A DNA stretch of 64,000 bases from Eledone cirrhosa (taxonomy: Eukaryota): contig OZ024751.1 in NCBI GenBank assembly GCA_964016885.1, forward strand, positions 45,136,001-45,200,000, read 5' to 3'. This document shows, one piece after another, positions 3,995 to 59,975 of this stretch. Position 1 is the first letter of the stretch. Every line of letters starts with the position of its first letter. A program made the position numbers and the translations under genes. The notes under the pieces are model-generated. The model had not been told where the DNA came from, did no database searches, and saw nothing but the letters and a program-made list of their open reading frames with translations.

Positions 3995-5901
3995 GTTTCT
4001 TTTATTTGCCACTAGGGCATCAAAAGTGGGACAAGTACAAAGGGGGGAGTTTACACAAAAAGGCGTCCTCAATAAGGAGGAGGCAATAACAAAATATAAA
4101 AATAAAATGAGATATAACAAAAAATAAAATTTTTAACAAAATCCTCAATAGAGAGGAGGCGCCTTGGGGGGTCGCACACACCCCCGAAAAAAGTGTGCAA
4201 CCCTTCTCCTCAGGAGCACAGAGAAGGGGTGCTCCCTTGGTCTTTCATCTTCCTCACCTATAGTCTGATGTAGAGTGAAGGCCCATTCACACGGGCCATT
4301 CTCGCCACTTTCACCCATCTTTCATAGAAACAGCTGGGGTGCAGCACCTCTCTCTCCATCCTGATCCTTCTTCCGAAATGATATCGGAAGAAACGGACCA
4401 GTTGTTGGCCAGAGAGAAAGGTGCCTGACCTCAGTCCTTTCAGACGCGTCCACCATACAACCTCTTTCGCCATGGCTATTACGCACAGAAACACCGCCTC
4501 TGCTTCATCTTTGAAGGGGGGAGGCGGCTTGATCATTACAATAGACTCGGTGGTCAACCGGATCGGTCCCACCCTTGACAGCAGTTGTTCGACATAGCCC
4601 CACAGATCGGCTACGCCCGAGCAGTGTACCAATGCGTGTGCAACGGTTTCCTCGTCGCACACGCATCTGGGACAGATCTTTTTGGCGGGGTCCCTACCCG
4701 GGCGCCCGTGTCTGTAGAGCCTTTCTCGAACGGGTAAAGCCCCTCGGTAGCACTGCCAGGCCAGGGACTTCTGGAAGTTGTCCATAGGTCCCGGGCTGAA
4801 TGTCCTACCGAACAGGCTGGCCAGTTCGTCCTCCTCCATGTCTAGGGCTTCTCCGAGGACGTCGTCGCACTTGCTGCGTACCAGCCCTCTATAGAATGTT
4901 GCGGTGGAGTCTCCACTGATAACCGGATCCGCCTGCCAGAGGGCGGTGAGCGCCTGGGCACACTCAGTGTGCCAGGCGCCCAGTTTTCTCGGTCTTTGCT
5001 TGACCCAGGATTGCAGCTCGGTGAGTGAGACGAGTCTGGGAAAGGTTCGTCTCACAAACGAGGCCCACACCGGTTGTCCGGTGAGGAATACATAGAGGTG
5101 CCGTAGCCTTAATGCGTGTTTACGCATCATTAGCCACGGCATCCCCAGCCCTCCTTTCGAAGGGTGTTGACAGCAGATGGATCTCCTCACCATAGGAGCC
5201 CGCCTCTTCCAAAGGAATTGGAAGAGCGCGCGCTCCATCTTGGTGAGGGTTTCCCTTGGGCAGGGCACTACGGTCAGGCGGTAGTAGATGACGGACGCTA
5301 TGTAGGTGTTCGCCACCTCCGCCCGACCTTTCAGGGATAGTTTGCAACTGGCCCACTTCTGGGTCAGTGCAAACACCCTGTTCGTAACCTCCGCCCAGTT
5401 TTTCTCCACCTGGAGGTCCGGTCCGAACCAGACCCCGAGCAACTTCACCGGGCCCTCCGTCCAGCGTCCGACGACGCCATCGGAGGGCATCGGTCTGCCC
5501 CTCCACGTGCCGAGTTGCAAACCGATCGACTTGTCCCGGTTCAGCTTAGCCCCTGTGAACTTTTCGTACTCCTCCAGTAAGGTGCCGACCGCCTCGATTT
5601 CGGAGGCCGTCGACACCATTACTGTCACGTCATCGGCGTAGGCCGACACCGCTTTCCGCAATCCCAGTTCCAAAGGGATGCCCTGCAACAACTCCAACTT
5701 CCGCAGTAGTGGCTCGAGAGTCAACACATACAGAAGGGAGGAGAGAGGGCACCCTTGTCGGATGGACCGCGCGATTTTGAACGGCTCCGAGAGGTAGCCG
5801 TTCACCTTGACCCTAGAGCAGATGCGGCTGCTGTGCATAGCAGTGATCCAGCCCCTGAAAACGGGTCCGAAGCCTGCCGCCGCTAGCACCGCATCCAGGT
5901 A
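3994..5901 (-). mobile_element. Tx1-clade non-LTR retrotransposon, 5'-truncated copy B (open RT C-terminal half plus zinc knuckle)
   Basis: RT motifs IRQGCPLSSLLY and AYADDV, KLLGVWFG, KLSLKGRA, GGLG, and CPRC..DEETVAHALVHC (zf-RVT type). Stop at 4258, ~265 nt 3' UTR with AATAAA, flanked by (GATA)n. Confidence 0.95.
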
Positions 5902-5908
5902 GATAACC

Positions 5909-5945
<37 letters not shown>

Positions 5946-5947
<2 letters not shown>

Positions 5948-8427
5948 TTTCTTTTTATTTGCCACCAGGGCATCAAAAAGTGGGACAAGTACAATGGGGG
6001 GAGTTTACATGAAAAGGCGTCCTCAATAAGGAGGAGGCAATAACAAAATATAAAAATAAAATAAAATATAACAAAATAAAATTTATAACAAAATCCTCAA
6101 TAGAGAGGAGGCGCCTTGGGGGTCGCACACACCCCCGAAAAAAAGTGTGCAACCCTTCTCCTCAGGAGCACAGAGAGGGGGTGCTCCCTTGGTCTTTCAT
6201 CTTCCTCACCTATAGTCTGATGTAGAGTGAAGGCCCATTCACACGGGCCATTCTCGCCACTTTCACCCATCTTTCATAAAAACGGCTGGGGTGCAGCACC
6301 TCTCTCTCCATCCTGATCCTTCTTCCGAAATGATATCGGAAGAAACGGACCAGTTGTTGGCCAGAGAGAAAGGTGTCTGACCTCAGTCCTTTCAGACGCG
6401 TCCACCATACAACCTCTTTCGCCATGGCTATTACGCACAGAAACACCGTCTCTCCTTCGTTTTTGAAGAGGGGAGGCGGCTTGATCGTTACAATAGACTC
6501 GGTGGTCAACCGGATCGGTCCCACCCTTGACAGCAATTGTTCGACATAGCCCCACAGATCGGCAATGCCCGAGCAGTGTACCAATGCGTGTGCAACGGTT
6601 TCCTCGTCGCACACGCATCTGGGACAGATCTTTTTCGAAGGGTCCCTACCCGGGCGCCCGTGTCTGTAGAGCCTTTCTCGAACGAGCAGAGCCCTTCTGT
6701 AGCACTGCCAGGCCAGGGACCTCCGGAAGTTATCCATGGGTCTCGGGCTGAATGTCCTACCGAACAGGTTTGCCAGTTCGTCTTCCTCCATGCCTAGGGC
6801 TTCTCCGAGGGCGTCGTCGCACCTGCTAACCACCAGCCCTCTATAGAATGACGAGGTGGATTCTCCACTGACAGCCAGGTCCGCCTGCCAGAGAGCCGTG
6901 AGCGCCTGGGCACACTCGGTGTGCCAGGCGCCCAGTTTTCTCGGTCTTTGCTTGACCCATGATTGCAGCTCGGTGAGTGAGACGAGTCTGGGAAAGGCTC
7001 GCCTCACAAACGAGGCCCACACCGGTTGACCGGTGAGGAATACCTGGAGGTGCCGTAGCCTTAATGCGTGTTTACGTATCATTAGCCACGGCATCCCCAG
7101 CCCTCCTTTCGAAGGGTGTTGACAGCAGATGGATCTCCTCACCATAGGAGCCCGCTTCTTCCAAAGGAATTGGAAGAGTGCGCGCTCCATTTTGGCGAGC
7201 GTTTCCCTTGGGCAAGGCACAACGGTCAGGCGGTAGTAGATGACGGGCGCTATATAAGTGTTCGCCACCTCCGCCCGACCTTTCAGGGACAGTTTGCACT
7301 CGGCCCACTTCTGGGTCAGTGCAAATACCCTGTTCGTTACCTCACCCCAGTTCTTCTCCACCTGGAGGTCTGGTCCGAACCAGACCCCGAGCAACTTCAC
7401 CGGGCCCTCCGTCCAGCGCCCGACGACGCCATCGGAGGGCATCGATCTGCCCCTCCACGTGCCGAGTTGCAGACCGATCGACTTGTCCCGGTTCAGCTTA
7501 GCCCCTGTAAACCTTTCGTACTCCTCCAGTAAGGTGCCGACCGCCCCGATTTCCGAGGCCGTCGACGCCATTACTGTTACGTCGTCGGCGTAGGCCGACA
7601 CCGCTTTCCGCAATCCCGGTTCCAACGGGATGCCCTGCAACAACTCCAACTTCCGCAGCAGTGGCTCTAGAGTCATCACATACAGAAGGGAGGAGAGAGG
7701 GAACCCTTGTCGGATGGACCGCGCGATTTCGAACGGCTCCGATAGGTAGCCGTTCACCTTGACTCTAGAGCAGATGCGGCTGCTGTGCATGGCATTGATC
7801 CAGCCCCTGAAAACGGGTCCGAAGCCTGCCGCCGCTAGCACCGCATCCAGGTAACCATGGTCGACCCTATCGAACGCCTTAGATTGATCCAAGTTGATCA
7901 GGGCCCCACCAAAGCTGGGTTCGTTCCCAACCCTCTCTATGATGTATCGCATGAGGTGGAGGTTGTCGTGGCTGGACCTGGTGGGAAGATGCATGTCTGC
8001 GCATCTCCCACCAGGTTGCCCCACGACAAGCGCCAACCTCTTTGCTAGCACCTTGGCCAAAATCTGTAACTCTGTATTTAGCAGAGTTATGGCCTGAAAT
8101 TATTATATCGTCCCCCTTGTTCTCGTCCCTTCCTCACTAGCGTGACTACGCCTTGGTCACAGCACAGGGAATTCTCCCGTTCTGTTGCCAGTTGCAGTAG
8201 ACCGCCTCGAGGAGATCGGGGAACAAGTCCGGCATAGCTAGATACAGTTCGTATGGAAGACCATCGAGACCCGGGGATTTTGCGGTTTGCCGCATTGGTT
8301 CAGCACGTCCCCTCTATCTCAGCGGCTGAAATCGGCTCCTCGCAGGACTTCGCCTCCCTGTCCGAGAGACGCGGCAGGCCGTCGAGGTATGGACCGAAGT
8401 CCACATCCCAACCGGCTCCCCGCCCCT
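5946..8427 (-). mobile_element. Tx1-clade non-LTR retrotransposon, 5'-truncated copy C (most of RT domain; frameshifted near 5' end)
   Basis: Motifs AKVLAKRL, LDQSKAFDRVDH, IRQGFPLS, AYADDV and CPRC..ETVAHALVHC. Near-identical to copy B over the shared part. Upstream 8060-8427 is RT-proximal sequence with indels. Flanked by (GATA)n. Confidence 0.95.
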
Positions 8428-9806: not shown

Positions 9807-10001
9807 TTATATGTATTTATTTTTATAACCCAGTAGGGTTTACTGAACTAAATCTATTAAATCTTTTATGTTCCCTATATCTGATGACGTCGCCGATCGT
9901 CTTGCATCATGGTCTGATGACGTAAGCCGATCACTGAAATACGTATTGTGTAATTGTGAAACATCAGTTGGATATATGGCAATCCGCCCTTCTATTTTCA
10001 T

Positions 10002-13003: not shown

Positions 13004-13010
13004 TATATAT

Positions 13011-13039
13011 TGGTTCGGTCTGACGAGTTCCACATCACT

Positions 13040-13073
<34 letters not shown>

Positions 13074-13103
13074 AGTGATGGGGAACTCGTCAGACCGAAC
13101 CAA
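13011..13103. repeat. Short inverted repeat around (TA)n carrying a CUGACGA hammerhead 5' half
   Basis: TGGTTCGGTCTGACGAGTTCC.CATCACTGGT (TA)n ACCAGTGATG.GGAACTCGTCAGACCGAACCA. Confidence 0.75.
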
Positions 13104-13306
13104 GGAAACAATATTTCCATTGGTCTTTTCAATTGGAGATACTATCTACCGGTCGCAATTCCTGACAAGGAACAACACATCGTTTTACTCGGGAATCGAA
13201 CACACAGCCTTGCGTGTGAATCCAACTTCCTAAGCCCTAAGCAAAACAACCAATTGACTGTAAAAACATTAGGAACATTTGAAATTTCAGATGTAGTCGT
13301 CTAAAT

Positions 13307-27832: not shown

Positions 27833-28834
27833 TGATAGGGACTGGGGTCCATATCATTCCACTGCAAAGTGGTCGTGGAGGTGCCACGGCAAAAAAGCAC
27901 CCAGCACTCACTGTAAATGAGGTTGGTGTTAGGAAGGGCATCCAGCTGTAGAAATCAAGCCAGCATCAGTTCCCGTCCCACCCTTGCAAGCGGACGTAAA
28001 ATGCAATGATGATGATGAATGATAGACCTGAATTTATTTCATTGTTTCAATTTCACGACCACCACCATCACTCCTACTGCCAAAATCACCACCATTGCAA
28101 TCATTGCTACTATCAAAAGAGATTAGATTTCTGTGGAATCCATTTCCTGGAGAGCCAAGCTGGTTGCTCTCTATTTCTTTGTTATTTATTGGTAAATATT
28201 GTTGAAAATAGAGAGAAAATAAAGAAGAAATCAACAATGAAAATAAAACAAAGAATTAATGTTAAAGAAAATCTCAGTGTTTTTACTTCTTCCATTCCAT
28301 ACAACTATTGAGGCTTCCACCCCCACAATCAGCATTCACATCTCTTTCTCTCTTTTTCTCTCTGTCTCTTTGAAACCCTCACACCATCTCTCCCTCTCTC
28401 TCAAAACTCTCACACCACTGCCACCACTCTCTCTCTCAAAACCCTCACACCACTTCCACCACTCTCTCTCTCAAAACCCTCACACCACCACAATCATCAT
28501 TTAGTTAATATATTAATTTAATGCTTGAAACAGTAGGAAAAGAATTGCAACGTTTCGGATGTTAGTCCTTCATCAGAAGATAGAATGAGAAATAAAAAAA
28601 TAACTAGATAATGAGAAGAGAAAGAAATGGGAAACCACATTTCAGCATGTACTGGTAACTTTTTCTCAAGGACCCCAACAACACTACATGACCACCTTAC
28701 AGGGTAGACTAGGAGCTTTTTGTAATGGTGTCAATGTGACCAGTGAGAGAGAGTGAGACAGAGAGAGAGAGGGTCAGAGAGAGAGAGAGTAAGAGAAAAG
28801 GAGAGAGTGAGAGAGAGAGAGTAAGAGAAAAGGA

Positions 28835-30151: not shown

Positions 30152-31860
30152 ATCATCATCATCATCGTTTAACGTCCATCTTCTACGCTTGCATGGTTTT
30201 GGACGGGAATTTTCCCACTTGAGGCAAGATTGGTTGTCTTGCTCGTATAGGACTGTCTGGCAGGTTATCTACGGCTGGATGCCCTTCCTAACACCAACCA
30301 CTTTTACAGTGTGGACTGGGAGGTTTTTACCGTGTTACCTACATGGCCACATTACAGCGTGGACTGTGTTTCTTTTGTCGTGACACCTACACGACCTCAT
30401 TTATTTAGGACTGGATGTTGTGGTACCAACATAACTTTACATCGAAAGGGGTGGTGTGGATGGGGTGGGGGTAGTGGAACGGGGGTGTATTTTTGTGAAG
30501 AGGTGCCTACCGACTGTAGTTTTCGCTTTGTACTTAGGCAAGGCGGGTCTTCTGTATTACTGTGTAGCGCCAAACATCTCGGTCCAGAGACATTGTCTTG
30601 GAGAGATGTAAGTGTGTGAGGTCGGAATTTATCAAGTCGTCCCAGGTTTTTCTGGGTCTGCCTACTCCGTGGCTACGTCTATTTTTATCGCCCTGCACTT
30701 TTTTATACAGCTGTCGTCTTTCATGCGCATCACGTGACCATGCCAATGTAGTCTTTTCTCGAGTAAACAACATCTGATCCCTCTTATTCCTAATTTCTCC
30801 CTTAGTTCATTTATGCTTTGCCGTTCAAGTATATTACTATTACACATCCAACGGAGCAAGCAAGCTTCATTCCTCTCCAGTCTGCGTATATCCTCTGCAC
30901 ACAATGCCCAAGTCTCACTGCCATGTAACATTGCTGTTCGTATGCAGGCATCATACAGCCTGCCTTTCATTTTTAGAGAGAACCCTTTAGCGGCCAATAG
31001 TGGTATAAGCTCTCTGAACTTTTTCCATCCCGTTCTGACTCTAGCTACTGTACTTTCAGAGCACCCTCCACCACTGCTGATTTTGTCACCCAGGTAACGG
31101 AAGGTGTCCACTATTTCTATAGAACCATCTGTGCAATGGAATGAGCATTCTGTGGGCACTTGCTGCTACTTATTGCACCTGAGCACTGGCCACATATAAA
31201 ATCTATATTCTTAGTTAGCTTACCTGTGATCCCACTACATCTTTTATGCATCATACTTTGCATTTGGGACATAAAATGGAGTTTCTGCCTACTCCTTTCC
31301 TACACACTAGCATGGCCATTTCCCAGATGGGACCAGTGCCCTATTTTCCTTCCTACAAACTAGAACTTTAGTCTTAGACAGGTTAATTTTGAAGCCTTTT
31401 GATTCTAGGCCATGCTTCCATGTTTGGAATTTCTTCTCTAGTTCAGCCATTGATTCAGCTATGAGCGTTAGATCATCTGCGTATAGGAGTTCCCATGGCC
31501 AGGCGGTCTTGAACTCCTCTGTTATAGCCTGAAGGGCACTAATAAATAGGAGGGAGCCCTGATGAACACCAACTTTTACGCTAAACTCTTCACTATATTC
31601 GTTGTTAATTCTAACCTTGCTGACTGTTTCTTTATACATGGCTTGTATAGCTCTCACAAGCCATTCATCAACACCTAGTTTTCTAAGAGCCCACCAGGTA
31701 ATGGAGCGGTGGACTCTGTCAAAGGCTTTCTCCAAGTCAACAAAAGCTAAGTATAGGGGTTTACTTTTAGCTAGGTACTTCTCCTGTAGTTGTCGTACAA
31801 TGAAAAGAGCATCTGTGGTACTTTTACCTGACACAAACCCGAACTGCATTTTATCTAGAT
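30152..31860 (-). mobile_element. RTE-clade LINE, 5'-truncated and degenerate
   Basis: MQFGF..GKSTTDA.F..RQLQEKY, FVDLEKAFDRV, GVHQGS, LLYADDL, FRYLGD, MLHGSETW, RL.W.GHVMR, GRPRKTW; (GAT)n 3' tail; stops and frameshifts present. Confidence 0.93.
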
Positions 31861-32223
31861 GAAATATATATATATATACAAACACACATATACATATATC
31901 ATCTGTGAAACTCATGTAACAGGTCGATGATCAATAACATGTAAACGAAACTTCATCTTTCTTTTCTTTATGTGTGTATACATACATACATATATATGCA
32001 TATACATACACACATACATACACATATATATATATATATACATACATGTACATACATACATATACATATATGTACACATATTTAAACGATGATGATGATA
32101 TATATACATATATACATATATATACACACACATACGTATGTATATATACATACATATATATATATATATACATACATATATACATACATATATATATATA
32201 TACATACATATATACATACATAT

Positions 32224-36020: not shown

Positions 36021-38035
36021 GCTAATAATAATAAACACTGAAAGATCTTGTTATTGAATTAGGCATATGTGAGGAGGAGTGGGGGAAGGGTGTTGAGAGG
36101 AGGAGAGATATCTAACTACTTCAGTTATTACATCATATTACATGTTGGTGTGAGGAGGTGGGCTGGAACAATGCTACAAATAGAAAGTATGGCTTAGTGA
36201 TTAGGATGTTTAACTAATGATTGTAAGGTTGTGATTTCAATACCAGGTTGGGTGTTGTGTAATAGGTAGGAAGGCCAGAGTGAGATAGGAAAGGTGGTGT
36301 AGTTGGAAGGGTGGTGTGTGGTGGGAAAGGTGGTGTGGTAGGAATGGTGGTGAGGTGGGAAGGGTAGTGTGGTGGGAAGGGTGGTGTGGGGTAGGAAGAG
36401 TGGTGTGTGGTAGTAAGGGTGGTGTGTGATATGAGGAGCAGTATAACATAGGAGGGGTAGTGTGGTTGGAAGGATGGTGTGTGATATGAGGTGTAGTAGG
36501 AGTGGCAGTGTGTGGTAGGAGGGGCAGTTTAAGGTAGGAGGGAGAATGTGAGGAATCAAAAGGTAGGAGGGAAGGTTAAAAGCCAAACTGTGTAAACAAG
36601 GAAGCAGGCACCATTGAACTGATTAAAAGACAGAGATTTCCTGAACAAGACTAGTAAATTCCAGAGATTCCATAACGGCTGCTAACAGTGCAGTTGGTCT
36701 GTTGTCTGTTGGAGTGGTGATGGTGGGAGTGATAGTGGAGGTGTGATGATAGTGGGGAGGTCGTGATGGAGTGGCAAGTGTAGTGGTTGTGGTGTGTGAT
36801 GATAGTGATGATGGAGTGGCAGGGATATTGGTGAGGTGGTGAGTGGTGATGATGGCAGTAGTGGTGATAATGGGTGGTAGTGAGTGTGGTCCTACTGGTA
36901 ATGGTGGTTGGCAGAGGTCCTACATTCTGAATTCAAATCCCAGCAAAGTCTACTTTGCCTTTCATCTTTCAAACTTGATAAAATAAAGTACCAGTAAAAT
37001 ATTGAGGAGGAGACCTTATAATTGACCTCAGCAGGTGAAAATCCGGGTCTGATTGTCAGATAGGGGGACCATGGAAACCAATGATTTACAAATATTGAAG
37101 GTCATATTTGTTCAAAATACATTAAAAATGACAGGAAAAATAAATTTCACTTTCAAAATCCTAACCAAACCTATCAACTAACTACTCTAAAAATATTTAT
37201 TATTACACTCGACTCAGAAACAGGCATAATGTCCTGGGTTTGATTCTTGGACCAGGTTGCGCATTGTCTTCTTGAACAATACACTTCATTTCACGTTGCT
37301 ACAGTACACTCAGCTGAAAATAAGTACCAGCAATAGTCGTGAATTAACTCTACAATGGACTAGCATCCTGTCCAGAAAGGATTCTTGTACTCTCATTTAC
37401 TGATGAAAAATGAAATCAGAGAAAAGAAACCAGCCTGATGAGCTTAATGGGAAAGGCATATCAAACATTACCTATGTTTCACAAATAATTGGTTCAAGGT
37501 ATTTATCGATGTGATAGATATGACTCCAGTACCGACATATGGATTCAAATCAAAATATTTCTGTATATACATATAAATATATATATACATCCTATCCTAT
37601 CCAATCCAGAGCCTTCTCACACCTGTTGGAGGAACCCCTCCCGGTTTGACCTCAAGTGCTTTCTGTTTAGTTTTAATCATGTTAGGAGTGTAGCTGTACT
37701 CACTACGCTTGGCCAATTGTGGGTTGGTGAGGCTATTTAACCTGTAGTTGGGATGGATGGCCATTGACTCTGAGAAGTTCATCTATCCTTTTAACAACAG
37801 CTCTTGGTTTTTTGTGATGCTAGGAGTTCCACTTATCCTCCTAACCAGACCCTTGTCTAGTATATAGCTCGGTCTGAAGATCTGCATAAGGTGAAACATT
37901 TGATCTCGGTATGGTGAACTAACTGTTGTGGAACTACTTCTACCAAACTCGTCCCATGGACTGAGCACTCTACCACTACGGATATAACCCTCCAATGTGC
38001 AATAGATAGCAAGTGTCCACAGGGTACTAGCCCCT

Positions 38036-39045
38036 TCTATTGCCCAGATGGTTCTATAGAAATAGTAGACACTTTTCGTTACCTGGGTGACAAAATCAGC
38101 AGTGGTAGAGGGTGTTCTGAAAGTACAGTAGCCAGAGTCAGAACAGGATGGAAAAAGTTCAGAGAGCTTATACCGCTGTTGGCCACAAAAGGTTTCTCTC
38201 TAAAAATGAAAGGCAGATTGTATGATGCTTGTATACGAACAGCAATGCTACATGGCAGTGAGACGTGGGCATTGCGTGCAGAGGACCTGCACAGACTGGA
38301 AAGGAACGAAGCATGCATACTCCGTTGGATGTGTAATAGTAATATACGTGAACGGCAAAGCATAAATGAACTAAGTGAGAAACTAGGAATAAGAGGGATG
38401 AGATGCTGTTTACTCGAGAGAAGACTACGTTGGTATGGCCATATGATGCGCATGAAAGACGACAGCTGTATAAAAAAGTGCAGGGCAATCAAAATTGATG
38501 GTAGTTACGGAGTAGGTAAACCCAGAAAAACCTGGGACGATCTGATAAATTCCGACCTTACACACTTGCACCTCTCTAAGACAATGTCACTGGACCGAGA
38601 TCTTTGGCGCTACGCAGTAATACAGAAGACCCGCCTTGCCTATGTACAAAGCGAAACCTACAGTCGGTAGGCACCTCTTAACCAAATATACACTCCAATC
38701 CACTACCCCTATCCTATCCTCCCGCCCACCAACACCACCCTCTCTCTATAAAGTTGGTACCACAACATCCAGTCCAAATAAATGAGATCGAGATCATGTA
38801 GGTGTCACGAGAAAAAAACACACAGTCCATGCAGTAATGTGGCCGTGTAGGTAACACGGTAAAAAATTCCCAGTTCCACATTGTAAATGTGGTTGGTGTT
38901 AGGAAGGGCATCCAGCCATAGAAAACCTGCCAGATAGTCCTATATGAACGAGACATGGTCACCCGACCAACCTTGCCTCAAGTGGGACAACTCCCGTCTA
39001 ACCCATGCTGGAAAGTGGACGTTAAACGAGGATGATGATGATGAT
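38036..39045 (+). mobile_element. RTE-clade LINE 3' fragment
   Basis: FRYLGDKI, MLHGSETW, RRLRWYGHMMR, GKPRKTW; 3' UTR ends GGACGTTAAACGAG(GAT)n; very similar to the reverse complement of 30152-31150. Confidence 0.93.
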
Positions 39046-46834: not shown

Positions 46835-47481
46835 ATGAACGGCCTCTCTCTCAGCGAGCTTTGTTGTCTGTTTTGCTGTCCGCCATGTCCCTCGCGTATC
46901 GCTGCCAAACTGGCGTTTCTGCCTCCAGAACCGACATATTCCTTAGTATCGGACCAAACAGGATCACGGTACAGTTTGCATCTGACAGAAAGAGCAGAAT
47001 GGCAATATTCGCAAAAAGAACTGGATTGTATCGAAGTATTCATGACGAGAACTACACGGGGAAACAGAATCTCATGTATGTTTGTTCGCTGTTCCCCCAA
47101 CGCTCGTTTTACTCTCCTATTCAGCCACGGAAATGCAGTCGATTTAGGACAAATGAGTAGCTTTTATATCGGACTCGGATCTAGAATTAACTGTAATATC
47201 TTTAGTTACGATTATTCTGGCTATGGAGCTAGCTCAGGAAAACCTTCGGAGAAAAATCTTTATTCTGATATCGATGCGGCTTTACAAGCCTTGCGGACTC
47301 GTTATGGCATCAGTCCACAAAATGTCATTTTGTACGGACAAAGTATAGGTACCGTTCCTACAGTGGATCTCGCTTCAAGATTTGAAGTCGGAGCTGTTAT
47401 TCTACATTCACCTCTTACATCTGGGGTACGTTTGGCTTTTCCCGACACAAAACGCACTTGGTTTTTTGATGCCTTCCCGAG
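46835..47481 (+). CDS. ABHD17: Alpha/beta hydrolase domain-containing protein 17 (FAM108-type protein depalmitoylase), first coding exon; remaining exon(s) not found in window
   Basis: Translation [35 protein letters not shown]...[14 protein letters not shown]...[21 protein letters not shown]...[16 protein letters not shown]...[25 protein letters not shown] matches the ABHD17 family: N-terminal palmitoylated Cys cluster and GQSIG nucleophile elbow. It ends at a canonical phase-2 donor AG|GTAAGT (47481/47482). The exon with catalytic Asp/His was not located. Confidence 0.96.
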
Positions 47482-55881: not shown

Positions 55882-57379
55882 AGCCGTCGTCTGTCTGCAC
55901 TGCAATGAGCCATTGTTGCAGTGTATGCTGTATGCTTGCACTGCACGTACAATGTGTGTTAAGAATGTCTCCCCCATCCCCCTCTTCTACATCTGTTCTT
56001 GTGCACTAATTGCTTTCATTATTTACATATTGTCTCTTATATAGACATTGCTACAATGCTATCTTTCTCTATTTTTTTATAGAGATATAGCAACTTGTAT
56101 TTTCTCCCCATTCTACATTTAACAATCTGCAACAACATTACATTATAGTACAGAAAATATCTACCTTTATTATATTATCTCCTCTTTTCAATACTGCAAC
56201 ATATGGTCTAAAAATGATTGCTATTTTGTTTTACTTATTTTATTTATTTTTACTTCAGCTCTGATTTGTAATCATAAATATTTATTTTCTACATTTTTAT
56301 TCGAGTTAATATAAATTGCATTTAATACCTTTGTTGTTTTCTTGATGGCTCATTCACACTGTAATTTTCATGAATGTGTTTGTGTTATTTGTGTGTGTGG
56401 TATGGGGGTGGTATATAATGTGTGGGTAGGTGCATATGTACGTATATGTGTGTGTGTGTGGTATGTATGTATGTAGGTATATATATATGCAGGTGAGTGT
56501 GTATATATATATGTGTGTGGGTAATATTTTATTTCCTCCAACATTTTCATTAGTACTTTGCTTAGATTTAATTTCCATTCAGTCTAAATCCCCCAACAAT
56601 AGTAAGTCACTCTTAATACTAATTATACTAGCTATACTAACCGATAGAGAAGGGTGAAACTGTCTATACTAATTATACTAGCTGTACTAAGTGATAGAGA
56701 AGGGTGAAACACTGTCTATACTAACTGTACTATTAACAGTGATGAGCATGGATGATGAGTGCTGGGAAATGCCACTGGAAGGAAGCTGCATTAGAGGTAG
56801 ACCAAGAAAGACCTGAGCAAAGGTGGAACTGATGGGGAGCTCTGAGCAGTGGCTAGCTGGGGTAAGGCACTGGTTGAATGATTCTATGACAAAGGGCCCT
56901 GTGGGCTCTTCACTTGTGTCAAATACATGACAGTCTTCCTAGTGTTAATACCATGGTAAAATGTACTCAGTAGACTGCAGGAATGTAACCGAGGTGCAGG
57001 CCACTGGCCCCTCTGAGAGGTCAGTAGTTCCGCTTAAGAACTCTGTCTATAATTACTTTTCCATTAAGATAGGTGTCTTTATTTTAGGAAGAGATATGAC
57101 TTCAGAGGAGTGTGTGGAGGTATGTCTTTATTGCAGGAAGGGATATGGTGGAAGAGATTTTCATGATTGTGTTCAAAAAGCAGTAGGTGTGTTTGGGGAA
57201 GGGAGATTTTGGTCCTGTGTAACTGGAAGTCCTTTTGCTGGTATTAGATATCAATAATATAATTGTTTCTACTTTTTGGCACAAGGCCAGCAATTACCCA
57301 GTACATTAATGAGATGATATACATAGCAGTATTGAAACTAATTAGTATGAATCAGAAATCTATGTCCTTATATATATAT

Positions 57380-58439
57380 ATATCACGGTAAATTAAAGGA
57401 ACCATAGGCCCTCGCTATTCCCTGTAAATAATGTGCTCAAAGGAGAAGAAATCCTGAGCTCTTTAAAATACAATATGTTGAAAAGGTAACACACCAGAGA
57501 GAGATATACAGTGCGCTATCAATAAAACGGAAAAAAACCACCAGTGTATGGAATCTATAACCTATGAAAGGCAGACTATAGACATGATAATTAAAAATAT
57601 AAATTAAAGCGTAAATAAATACCTCTATAACTATATAACACGTACAAATCCAAAGATATGTTTCACCAGTAATTTGTTGAAAGAAATGGGTTAGCCTCGG
57701 TTCATCAGCGTGTGTAAGGCTATACATTTCAGACAACACTAAGAGAATTCTAAAAGTGACTGTGCAGCTACATGTGTGAGAGGGAAGTCGCAGCATGTTT
57801 AAGGGCACTGAACCAGTGGCCTCTGAGGGACGAACTGCTAGAAAGGGTAGCCCAAAGCCACTCAGAGAAGTGTGCTCAACCAAACAGAGATATAGGAAAG
57901 ACTGTTATGAGGAGCGAAATATCACGATAAATTAACGGAGCCATAGGCCCTCGCTATTCCCTGTAAATAATGTGCTCAAAGGAGAAGAAATCCTGAGCTC
58001 TTTAAAATACAATATGTTGAAAAGGTAACACACCAGAGAGAGATATACAGTGCGCTATCAATAAAACAGGGAAAAAACCCACCAGTGTATGGAATCTATA
58101 ACCTATGAAAGGCCGACTATAGACACGATAATTAAAAATATAAATTAAAGCGTAAATAAATACCTCTATAACTATATAACACACGTACAAATCCAAAGAT
58201 ATGTTTCACCAGTAATTTCTTTCAACAAATTACTGGTGAAACATATCTTTGGATTTGTACGTGTGTTATATAGTTATAGAGGTATTTATTTACGCTTTAA
58301 TTTATATTTTTAATTATCGTGTCTATAGTCGGCCTTTCATAGGTTATAGATTCCATACACTGGTGGGTTTTTTTCCCTGTTTTATTGATAGCGCACTGTA
58401 TATCTCTCTCTGGTGTGTTACCTTTTCAACATATTGTAT
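57380..58439 (-). mobile_element. Non-coding hammerhead-containing element (Penelope-like or retrozyme-like): partial tandem with 539-bp period plus an inverted terminal arm, in (TA)n
   Basis: 57381-57675 is directly repeated at 57920-58218. 58215-58439 is an inverted copy. Complete hammerhead at 57638-57713. TA repeats at both ends. Confidence 0.85.
57638..57713 (-). ncRNA. Type I hammerhead ribozyme
   Basis: Minus strand: acacg CUGAUGA acc-(loop)-ggu GAAA cauauc uuug gauuug UA cgugu. Stems I, II and III all pair, the core is intact, and the cleavage triplet is GUA. Confidence 0.85.
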
Positions 58440-59571
58440 ATATATATATATATGCAAGCAGGGAAAAGCGGACATAAAGTGATGATGATGATAACCCATG
58501 TAGATTGTTAATTTTATCAAAATAGATGAGTGTTTGATGTCAGAGAGTGAAATCTACATATGTGCACAGAGACACCGGCTCTATCAAAATAGGTGAGTGT
58601 TTGATGTCAGAGAAAGTGGAATCTACATATGCACAGACACCAGTAAAATTTGTGTAGTGTACATGACTGAGAGATTTGGTGATTTGGGCCAATTTATTTC
58701 AACACTGTTAAGTACAACATTATATTATAGTCTAATAAAGTAACCCGTGAAAAACTCTCCACAATTTATGGAGACCTTTAATATGTTATTTGAGTGCAGT
58801 AAAATAAAGTACCAATCAAGTACTGGGGTTGATATAATCAGCTGTTTTAGAGCTTGTGCCTGTTTAAAAAAATGTGGAGATGAGGAAGATAGCTAAATGC
58901 CAGGACTTGACTGACCGCTTCCTTTTCATGCCAGACTTCAGGTGTTCTTGGCCCCCAAACTGTCTTTTCCTCCACAAAATTGAGAGAAGTGCATCCTTAT
59001 TGCCTATGCAACATAACAGTTTGCACACAGGTATTATACAGACAGCTGAAACATATTTTAAGTATTTCATGAAATTTATCTAGGACAGTAGCAGTACATT
59101 GTTTGTTTCCTAATGTCTCCTGCTGTTCATTTCACTTTATTTATGTGAATTATTCACAAGTTCTTGATTTTATTAACTACAGGTCAGGAGTTGAAGAGGT
59201 CAAAAGTTCAAAAACCTTGTCTTCACAAACCCCAAAATTAAATTATCAATACTTTGTTGAGAAATTGTATAGAGAAAATATTTGAGCAGTTCTCCATGAT
59301 TGCACACTGAGGTGGTACTTGATTAGTGGCTGCTTGACTAAAACTACTGTGAATTGCTAGTGACTTGATGGTGATGGCTGTATCTTAAGTTATTATAAAT
59401 CAGTACAGACAGTAGAAACATAACTGTATGTAAAATAACAAAATACTCCGTCATATGAATATATTTAAATTTATTAAACCTCTCATATTGTTTTCATATA
59501 AAATGTGAGGTGTTATTAACATTGTTACCAGTGTAAAGCAACACTACTGGAACTAATGTGTGTATATGTAT

Positions 59572-59975
59572 GTCATCATCATCATCATCATCCTTACCTT
59601 CATGCTTGTTTGGGTTGGATGGGTCTTTTCCAACACAGCTTCCCTCCACCTACTGCATTGTGTCATCTCCTCTGTCAGGGTCAGCATTTTGATAACCACT
59701 CTCACCACTTCTGTCCAAGTCTTTCTTGGCCTTCCTCTACTGCAGCTTCCTTCGACTGGGAACCCATGGCATTTTTTCAACCAACAATCATCAACAATAT
59801 GCATCACATGTCCATACCAGCACAGTCTTCTCTCTTACTCACTTCATTTGATTCTTTTTATACCCAGTTTTTCTCTGTCCATACTTTGCCATTCATACAT
59901 ATTAACATTACACATCCATTTGAACATGTTCACTTCAATTCTCTCCAACCTCCACGTATCATTTACTTTTACTGA
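59572..59975 (-). mobile_element. Older RTE-clade LINE 3' fragment
   Basis: RGRPRKTWTEVV, W.EAVLEKT and a (GAT)n tail. Confidence 0.8.

Follow-up and report, generated by a model that had tools for sequence, protein, structure and literature searches.

Structure of the copy in the window

Positions 57380 to 58439 of the window, which is the whole 64-kb stretch of Eledone cirrhosa DNA analyzed here, raise the question of how a non-coding repeat with a hammerhead motif came to lie as two opposed arms between two (AT)n tracts. The copy consists of 1.55 tandem units (57380-58218) and an inverted arm, with (AT)n on both sides. Positions within the unit are given as u1 to u539.

57370..57379, no strand: (AT)n target tract on the left side, read from the sequence
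57380..57918, RNA sense on the minus strand: complete 539-bp unit (u1-u539), start of the long arm
57380..57467, minus strand: 88-nt "tail" between site 1 (57380) and site 2 (57468), the putative reverse-transcription start sites, a reading taken from PMC11167929
57627..57726, minus strand: type I hammerhead motif, predicted from the sequence
57919..58218, minus strand: partial second unit (u1-u296), which ends the long arm and lacks the ribozyme 5' half
58215..58218, no strand: ATTT microhomology joining both arms
58219..58226: 8-nt loop directly after ATTT
58215..58439, plus strand: short inverted arm (u308-u89), without the tail and with the ribozyme 3' half only
58440..58453, no strand: (AT)n target tract on the right side, read from the sequence

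The second unit (57919-58218) is about 96% identical to the first and forms, together with the short arm, a hairpin of about 205 bp with 0 substitutions and one gap. The initial annotation had described about 1.5 tandem units plus an inverted arm, with the inversion at a 4-nt ATTT inside loop II of the ribozyme. Both points were confirmed, as the arms occupy 57380-58218 and 58215-58439, the ATTT at 58215-58218 belongs to both, and both halves of the microhomology lie inside loop II. A rare variant at u194 is present in the second unit and the short arm and absent from the first unit. Three contig sets from one sample contained no empty site and no piece across the junction of this copy; these sets match the insertion flanks without differences, and the sample may represent the same individual as the source assembly.

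The closest relative of this copy (locus L002) is single-armed and likewise ends at u308, which may be a preferred reverse-transcription stop. Additionally, short, extremely abundant repeats flank the insertion at 57255-57310 and 58800-58845. Contigs join the two on opposite strands, so both are probably pieces of a single SINE-like family that has no relation to the 539-bp unit.

Family size, periodicity and fixed ends

The copy in the window is an ordinary, slightly decayed member of an abundant non-coding 539-base repeat. Four queries yielded 1,566-2,527 candidates in the 3.0-Gb genome, and an 18-nt core motif gave 606 exact genome matches versus 0 for its reversed control; the family comprises roughly 1,000-2,500 copies. 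After merging duplicates and discarding loci without a central match, 210 fetched loci were reduced to 174 distinct insertions, in samples biased towards copies resembling the queries. The period was about 530-555, with spacings of 539 in one genomic array. The 155-codon stop-to-stop frame in the unit at 57380-57918 had no Pfam match, and the longest frame in five other family copies was at most 95 codons, with no conserved ORF. These results agree with the earlier description of a retrozyme-like, fixed-period unit without a credible ORF.

Among the 174 insertions, the unit continued only into itself, an inverted arm or the flank, and never into a coding element. The 62 open inner flanks gave only six pairwise matches, and since these differ in unit position and offset, the unit has no common extension. 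The concern raised at the outset, that the 539-bp unit might be just the end of a longer coding element, is thereby largely answered.

Ends were assigned from BLAST boundaries, with positions up to 10 forming the u1 class and positions 84-96 the u89 class. Two-armed insertions numbered 114 of 174, and the simple ones among them were all head-to-head (96 of 96). In 87 of the 88 insertions with both outer ends defined, one end was u1 and the other u89; the combination u1 and u1 occurred 0 times, and the single case with u89 at both ends is a compound four-arm locus. The remaining 26 of the 114 two-armed insertions had at least one end lost or displaced. Within the three samples not selected by either end, the combination of u1 and u89 was seen in 30 of 30. 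In a subset of 92 insertions, an (AT)n-like 8-mer adjoined 124 of 136 defined ends. A divergent subfamily, about 85% identical, has the same period and the same two ends, and one of its copies lies in the window.

20140..20264, no strand: 125-bp two-armed copy of the divergent subfamily, with u89-164 facing u51-1, in (AT)n

Divergence was 2.7% between tandem units, 3.3% between the arms of one insertion and 4.8% between insertions. In the 92-insertion subset, 18 of 137 inner arm ends fell at u140-u149 (57519-57528 in the window), which makes this position a hot spot. At another locus (L017:1501-2979), three units in a row are identical, against differences of 1-3% in the first unit and the inverted arm, which suggests a later tandem duplication or an assembly collapse.

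Hammerhead motif

The sequence elements of a type I hammerhead (CUGANGA, GAAA and NUH) and its three helices are all present on the minus strand, with CUGAUGA at 57708-57702 and GAA at 57664-57662. The GUA site lies between 57643 and 57642, where the initial annotation had placed it, and cleavage at this position is predicted. The motif is not fully paired as had been claimed: stem III (57661-57644) contains one U-U mismatch, stem II (57701-57698 with 57668-57665) has 4 bp including one G-U pair and carries a loop II of about 29 nt, and stem I has only 5 bp, with a private 2-nt deletion there. Among 127 distinct ribozyme copies in the family, the core was unchanged in 102; 88 combined an intact core with a stem I of at least 7 bp, 14 (the window copy among them) had a shorter stem I, and 25 had an altered core or cut site.

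The minimum-energy fold of the window ribozyme is an alternative hairpin and not the hammerhead (z 0.02), and in constrained folding the hammerhead reached -7.0 versus -11.9 kcal/mol. In this predicted fold, the core is caught in a hairpin expected to form first during transcription. When units were folded as circles, the window copy gave a z score of -0.55 on the ribozyme strand versus a median of -2.7 for 12 other units, whose opposite strand had a median of -1.4; the scores of the 12 units come from related sequences with 20 shuffles each. The copy had been singled out as the best-preserved member, which is correct inside the window; genome-wide it is not, in view of the stem I deletion, the circle-folding score and a divergence from the family majority of 3.0% against a median of 2.8% (81 segments).

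In an alignment of 30 copies, 93% of cells were paired in the ribozyme, and the predicted outer extension of stem I and the predicted pairing between the stem I bulge and loop II had 97% and 88% of cells paired, respectively. Covariation in these 30 ribozyme copies was limited to one pair changed on both sides, and an equal result came from 202 of 500 shuffles. With RNAalifold, stem I and its extension were obtained, and the core was not. Stem III occurs in three main forms, namely fully paired in divergent copies, shortened by 2 nt with two mismatches, and with one pair restored; if the forms arose in the order that we infer, this would indicate selection on the fold. The Rfam search of the window returned no match at gathering scores and no hammerhead; by E-value, it gave microRNA-type models on the palindrome and two weak sRNA matches, all below the cut-offs.

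The 2026 report of Li et al. (10.64898/2026.07.22.740005) defines an "active" retrozyme by two consecutive complete ribozymes. The window copy lacks such a pair, and 14 of 248 family arms hold two or more. With its single complete hammerhead, the window copy would therefore not release a 539-nt RNA by double cis-cleavage.

Host gene and intron

The insertion lies in an intron of a gene for an alpha/beta-hydrolase, the first coding exon of which is in the window.

46835..47481, plus strand: host alpha/beta-hydrolase coding exon 1, with a GT donor; intron from 47482

We take the host gene to be ABHD17-like, in keeping with the initial annotation; comparison of the host protein with the PDB gave only two weak alpha/beta-hydrolase-like matches, which supply no name. 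No later host exon was found within the 64-kb window. An in-phase final exon 2 was identified in 100 kb of downstream sequence, at about 13.7 kb from the end of the window, which makes the intron holding the window copy 30.2 kb long and free of gaps. It had been supposed that an intron of this gene spans the site with the intact ribozyme antisense to the pre-mRNA, and both suppositions proved correct. The plus strand has only the 3' half of the ribozyme, inside the hairpin. The further idea that the ribozyme in the host intron is thereby spared from cleavage fits the window copy, as one single case. The copy is likely a dead end with one weakened predicted ribozyme antisense to the host pre-mRNA, and its sole effect on the host is likely the hairpin of about 205 bp in that pre-mRNA.

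Proposed insertion from two primed ends

The main clue to Penelope-like elements (PLEs), which the initial annotation missed, is the presence of two fixed ends beside (AT)n. PLE insertions show a partial tandem and an inverted 5'-truncated copy at (TA)n targets, and a tail of 30-40 bp that is often present at one end only (PMC8557442, PMC3846280). A lizard PLE protein cuts and extends both strands in vitro, starting at two internal RNA sites that delimit the tail, and the ribozyme is not needed (Frangieh et al. 2024, PMC11167929). The stretch of 88 nt from u1 to u89 is consistent with such a tail. We consider it probable, with good confidence, that the 539-bp repeat is a non-autonomous passenger of PLEs, reverse-transcribed into (AT)n from both ends of one DNA break.

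Under this proposal, a PLE protein, probably a dimer, would nick both target strands. One DNA end would prime at site 1 of the RNA and the second DNA end at site 2, in both cases through pairing of 2-4 nt of the AT repeat. The two cDNAs would then be extended towards the RNA 5' side, for about 840 and about 225 nt in the window copy, and their 3' ends would anneal at AAAT/ATTT before fill-in. The near-identity of the two arms of the window copy would likely reflect later arm-to-arm correction of the palindrome.

The junctions between arms carry much of the evidence. More than 15 nt from symmetric were 80 of 96, and as these junctions are not hairpins, priming from two ends explains the family better than fold-back of a single cDNA. 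Near-symmetric junctions (within 15 nt) numbered 16 of 96 versus 7.2 expected after permutation (p ~0.002). Exact mapping was achieved for 55 of the 96 junctions; 26 with long gaps, mostly private changes near the junction, were excluded, leaving 29 clean ones with overlaps of 0 nt (4), 1 nt (6), 2 nt (6), 3 nt (4) and 4 nt (6) and with small insertions in three. Microhomology of at least 3 nt was present at 10 of the 29 versus about 5% by chance, and asymmetric junctions have the same 1-4 nt microhomologies. In L1 twin priming, two target-primed cDNAs are joined at their 3' ends by short microhomology, which leads to a 5' inversion. Microhomology is thus general in the 539-bp family, as would be expected if two cDNA 3' ends are joined in the manner of L1 twin priming. 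The 539-bp family departs from that process in having a second priming site at a constant 88 nt from the first, and arms that overlap in sequence and can exceed one unit.

The initial annotation had proposed a self-primed fold-back, as suggested for PLE inverted ends and palindromic junctions by Arkhipova et al. (2013, PMC3846280). Here one cDNA would form a 4-bp stem closing an 8-nt loop, serve as its own template and then be joined to longer sequence. The window junction has exactly this hairpin geometry, the rare u194 variant is shared by the second unit and the short arm to the exclusion of unit 1, near-symmetric junctions exceed expectation, and arms differ by 1.9% in 13 symmetric copies against 3.3% in 70 asymmetric ones (0 substitutions over 205 nt in the window copy). 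Fold-back would also yield identical arms if the insertion were young and the units came from different template repeats, which counts against the reading of two primed ends. Nevertheless, fold-back leaves the 80 asymmetric junctions and the rule of one end of each kind unexplained. The long arm extends 88+539 nt past the start of the short one and so cannot arise by folding back the short arm by itself; a second primed cDNA is still required. Moreover, 10 of 18 near-symmetric junctions have at most 1 nt of microhomology or an insertion, too little for self-priming, and the shared u194 variant is equally explained by arm-to-arm conversion. The asymmetric junctions of the family therefore argue against the self-priming of 2013 (PMC3846280) as the general route; we regard it as unlikely for the family and as a possible origin of this one copy.

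Two further explanations deal with the unit and the palindrome themselves. Long perfect hairpins are a recognised artefact class, into which this one would fit, and no contig examined spans its junction. It is barely conceivable, though, that the palindrome is an assembly or long-read fold-back artefact, given that the short arm stops at the fixed u89 of the family against (AT)n and is followed by unique sequence, and that 114 of 174 insertions on many chromosomes have the two-armed design. The unit could also be no more than a terminal repeat (pLTR) belonging to a longer coding PLE, with the copies as truncations. The anatomy of pLTRs, with hammerhead, tail and inverted copy (PMC8557442, PMC3846280), would suit such an origin, which we hold to be very unlikely, as none of the 174 insertions revealed a common extension beyond the unit and 30 of the 71 copies chosen for an unusual base beside site 1 had no continuation in common.

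A strict rule of one site per end goes further than the biochemistry. PMC11167929 reports that initiation occurred in the absence of target homology, that the start site did not differ between strands, and that there are two start sites without a rule tying them to the two DNA ends.

Possible templates of reverse transcription

The ribozyme cut site is crossed by 156 of 248 arms, and an arm end within 3 nt of it was seen in only 4 of 248. With most arms continuing across this site, the template was uncut or re-ligated, and these 4 of 248 rule out cleaved linear monomers as the usual template. The template was likely a re-ligated circle or an uncut multimer, the two being about equally probable. 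The order of divergence (2.7%, 3.3% and 4.8%) is compatible with one repeatedly copied template, without proving it. Scars of RNA editing were not apparent as an A-to-G excess on the ribozyme strand (private changes at 19 of 4,290 A sites versus T-to-C at 45 of 7,446 T sites), and there was a small T-to-C excess among variants common within an insertion (10 of 31 versus 45 of 386).

If the insertion from two ends by a PLE is correct, the template may always have been a linear read-through of tandem copies, with no circle and a dispensable ribozyme, and within that premise we give this sub-case a little less than an even chance. Uncut RNA was the main substrate in vitro and ribozyme mutants inserted normally (PMC11167929), 8 of 9 Xenopus retrozymes did not cleave in vitro according to 10.64898/2026.07.22.740005, the ribozyme core is trapped in the early-forming hairpin of the predicted fold, and the 14 of 248 arms with two or more complete ribozymes could supply multimers. 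Opposed to this are tandem units that are not more diverged than arms (2.7% versus 3.3%), the unchanged ribozyme core in 102 of 127 distinct copies, and the arms differing by whole turns, in which the longer one is 5-15 nt short in 6 of 8, a small sample, as if lapping a circle.

The offsets behind this last point come from 18 near-symmetric junctions, 14 of them with a signed offset, in which the trailing arm was short in 10, level in 1 and beyond in 3. In the nine near-symmetric junctions with arms differing by whole turns, it was short in 6 and not in 2, with one unassigned. The whole-turn offsets hint at collision on a common circle and are not significant alone. We therefore also considered a model in which one PLE dimer works on one 539-nt RNA circle, each DNA end having its own start site and never the same site twice, with the two reverse transcriptases running round that circle; the hairpin-like junctions would then mark a lapping enzyme that hits a stalled one. 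We consider this model possible and somewhat less likely than not.

Search for a Penelope-like partner

GIY-YIG matches in the genome gave 10,596 candidates, and RVT_1 and GIY-YIG were found together in 4 of 4 tested frames, with three RT scores just below the Pfam cut-off. Nucleotide and six-frame comparison of 50 GIY-YIG loci, a small part of the 10,596, showed no credible similarity to the unit; the sole similarities there were one inserted family fragment and AT-rich noise. No RT and GIY-YIG frame was attached to the 539-bp repeat in the 174 insertions, and no partner was found via the unusual neighbour at site 1 or via the divergent subfamily.

Coding RT/GIY-YIG elements of the genome also occur as head-to-head inverted pairs (loci L166 and L174). 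One such coding family ends about 528 and 575-590 nt from the stop codon, suggesting a tail of 50-60 nt in that family.

Comparison with known elements

The 539-bp family resembles EN+ PLEs (Craig et al. 2021, PMC8557442; PMC3846280; PMC11167929) in its partial tandem, inverted 5'-truncated copy and one-sided tail, in its AT-rich or (TA)n target, and in a hammerhead upstream of two start sites. It differs from them, as they are described in those sources, by a 539-bp unit without an ORF, a tail of 88 nt versus 30-40, and ends with 2-4 nt of pairing to the target. An autonomous PLE was rejected, as the 174 insertions contained no shared extension into a coding frame.

The family also shares with metazoan non-LTR retrozymes (Cervera and de la Pena 2020, PMC7229834; 10.64898/2026.07.22.740005) a non-coding tandem unit with one type I hammerhead, head-to-tail units in place of LTRs, a GC content below 45% (39% in the unit), dispersed monomers and short multimers, a length inside the reported 51-972 bp, and the proposed dependence on PLEs. 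The unit is longer than the 150-450 bp of the 2020 paper (PMC7229834), and the available accounts of non-LTR retrozymes lack head-to-head two-armed insertions with fixed paired ends, which make up two thirds of the 539-bp family. A plant LTR retrozyme, with a type III hammerhead in LTRs and a 4-bp target duplication, was rejected on account of the type I topology and the head-to-tail tandem units; a duplication is unreadable inside (AT)n. Our literature search found no description of the 539-bp family, which supplementary tables of retrozyme papers could list. By a sequence-level definition, it is a new family within animal non-LTR retrozymes.

Other repeats in the window

At 13005-13110 there is a perfect inverted repeat that is centred on an (AT)n tract and carries CUGACGA on either strand; it resembles two ends of a different repeat family that meet in a single microsatellite. 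Hammerhead-like motifs with no relation to the 539-bp unit also lie at 13795-13860 (plus), 28520-28590 (minus), 37862-37925 (plus) and 9881-9960 (plus), and the motif at 13808 resembles motifs in loci L166, L170 and L173. Two non-LTR retrotransposon frames, near-intact and about 610-630 codons long, lie in tandem on the minus strand (4261-6096 and 6213-8099). LINE fragments at 26619-27017, 30537-31930, 37918-38667 and 59556-59834, which we presume to be RTE-like, include a 469-bp inverted pair (30678-31146 and 38030-38498).

Implications for retrozymes and Penelope-like elements

It is the family statistics that give these results their value, since they concern the way in which PLEs form their ends; the individual copy matters little. 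The origin of the inverted ends and one-sided tails of PLEs is still an open question in the field. The clean count of 87 of 88 suggests that a different site is used at each DNA end, and the junctions show that hairpins account for a minority of the inversions. With putative start sites as far apart as 88 nt, the family could also serve in vitro work as a short non-coding substrate. Retrozymes are reported to derive from PLE pLTRs in vertebrates (Li, Clavereau and Pollet 2026, 10.64898/2026.07.22.740005), and the 539-bp family would extend the link between retrozymes and PLEs to an invertebrate, a case that this report lists as untested. If the model of a dimer copying one RNA circle is true, the inverted ends of PLEs would stem from this process in place of self-priming, and the family would provide genomic evidence for rolling-circle reverse transcription of retrozymes.
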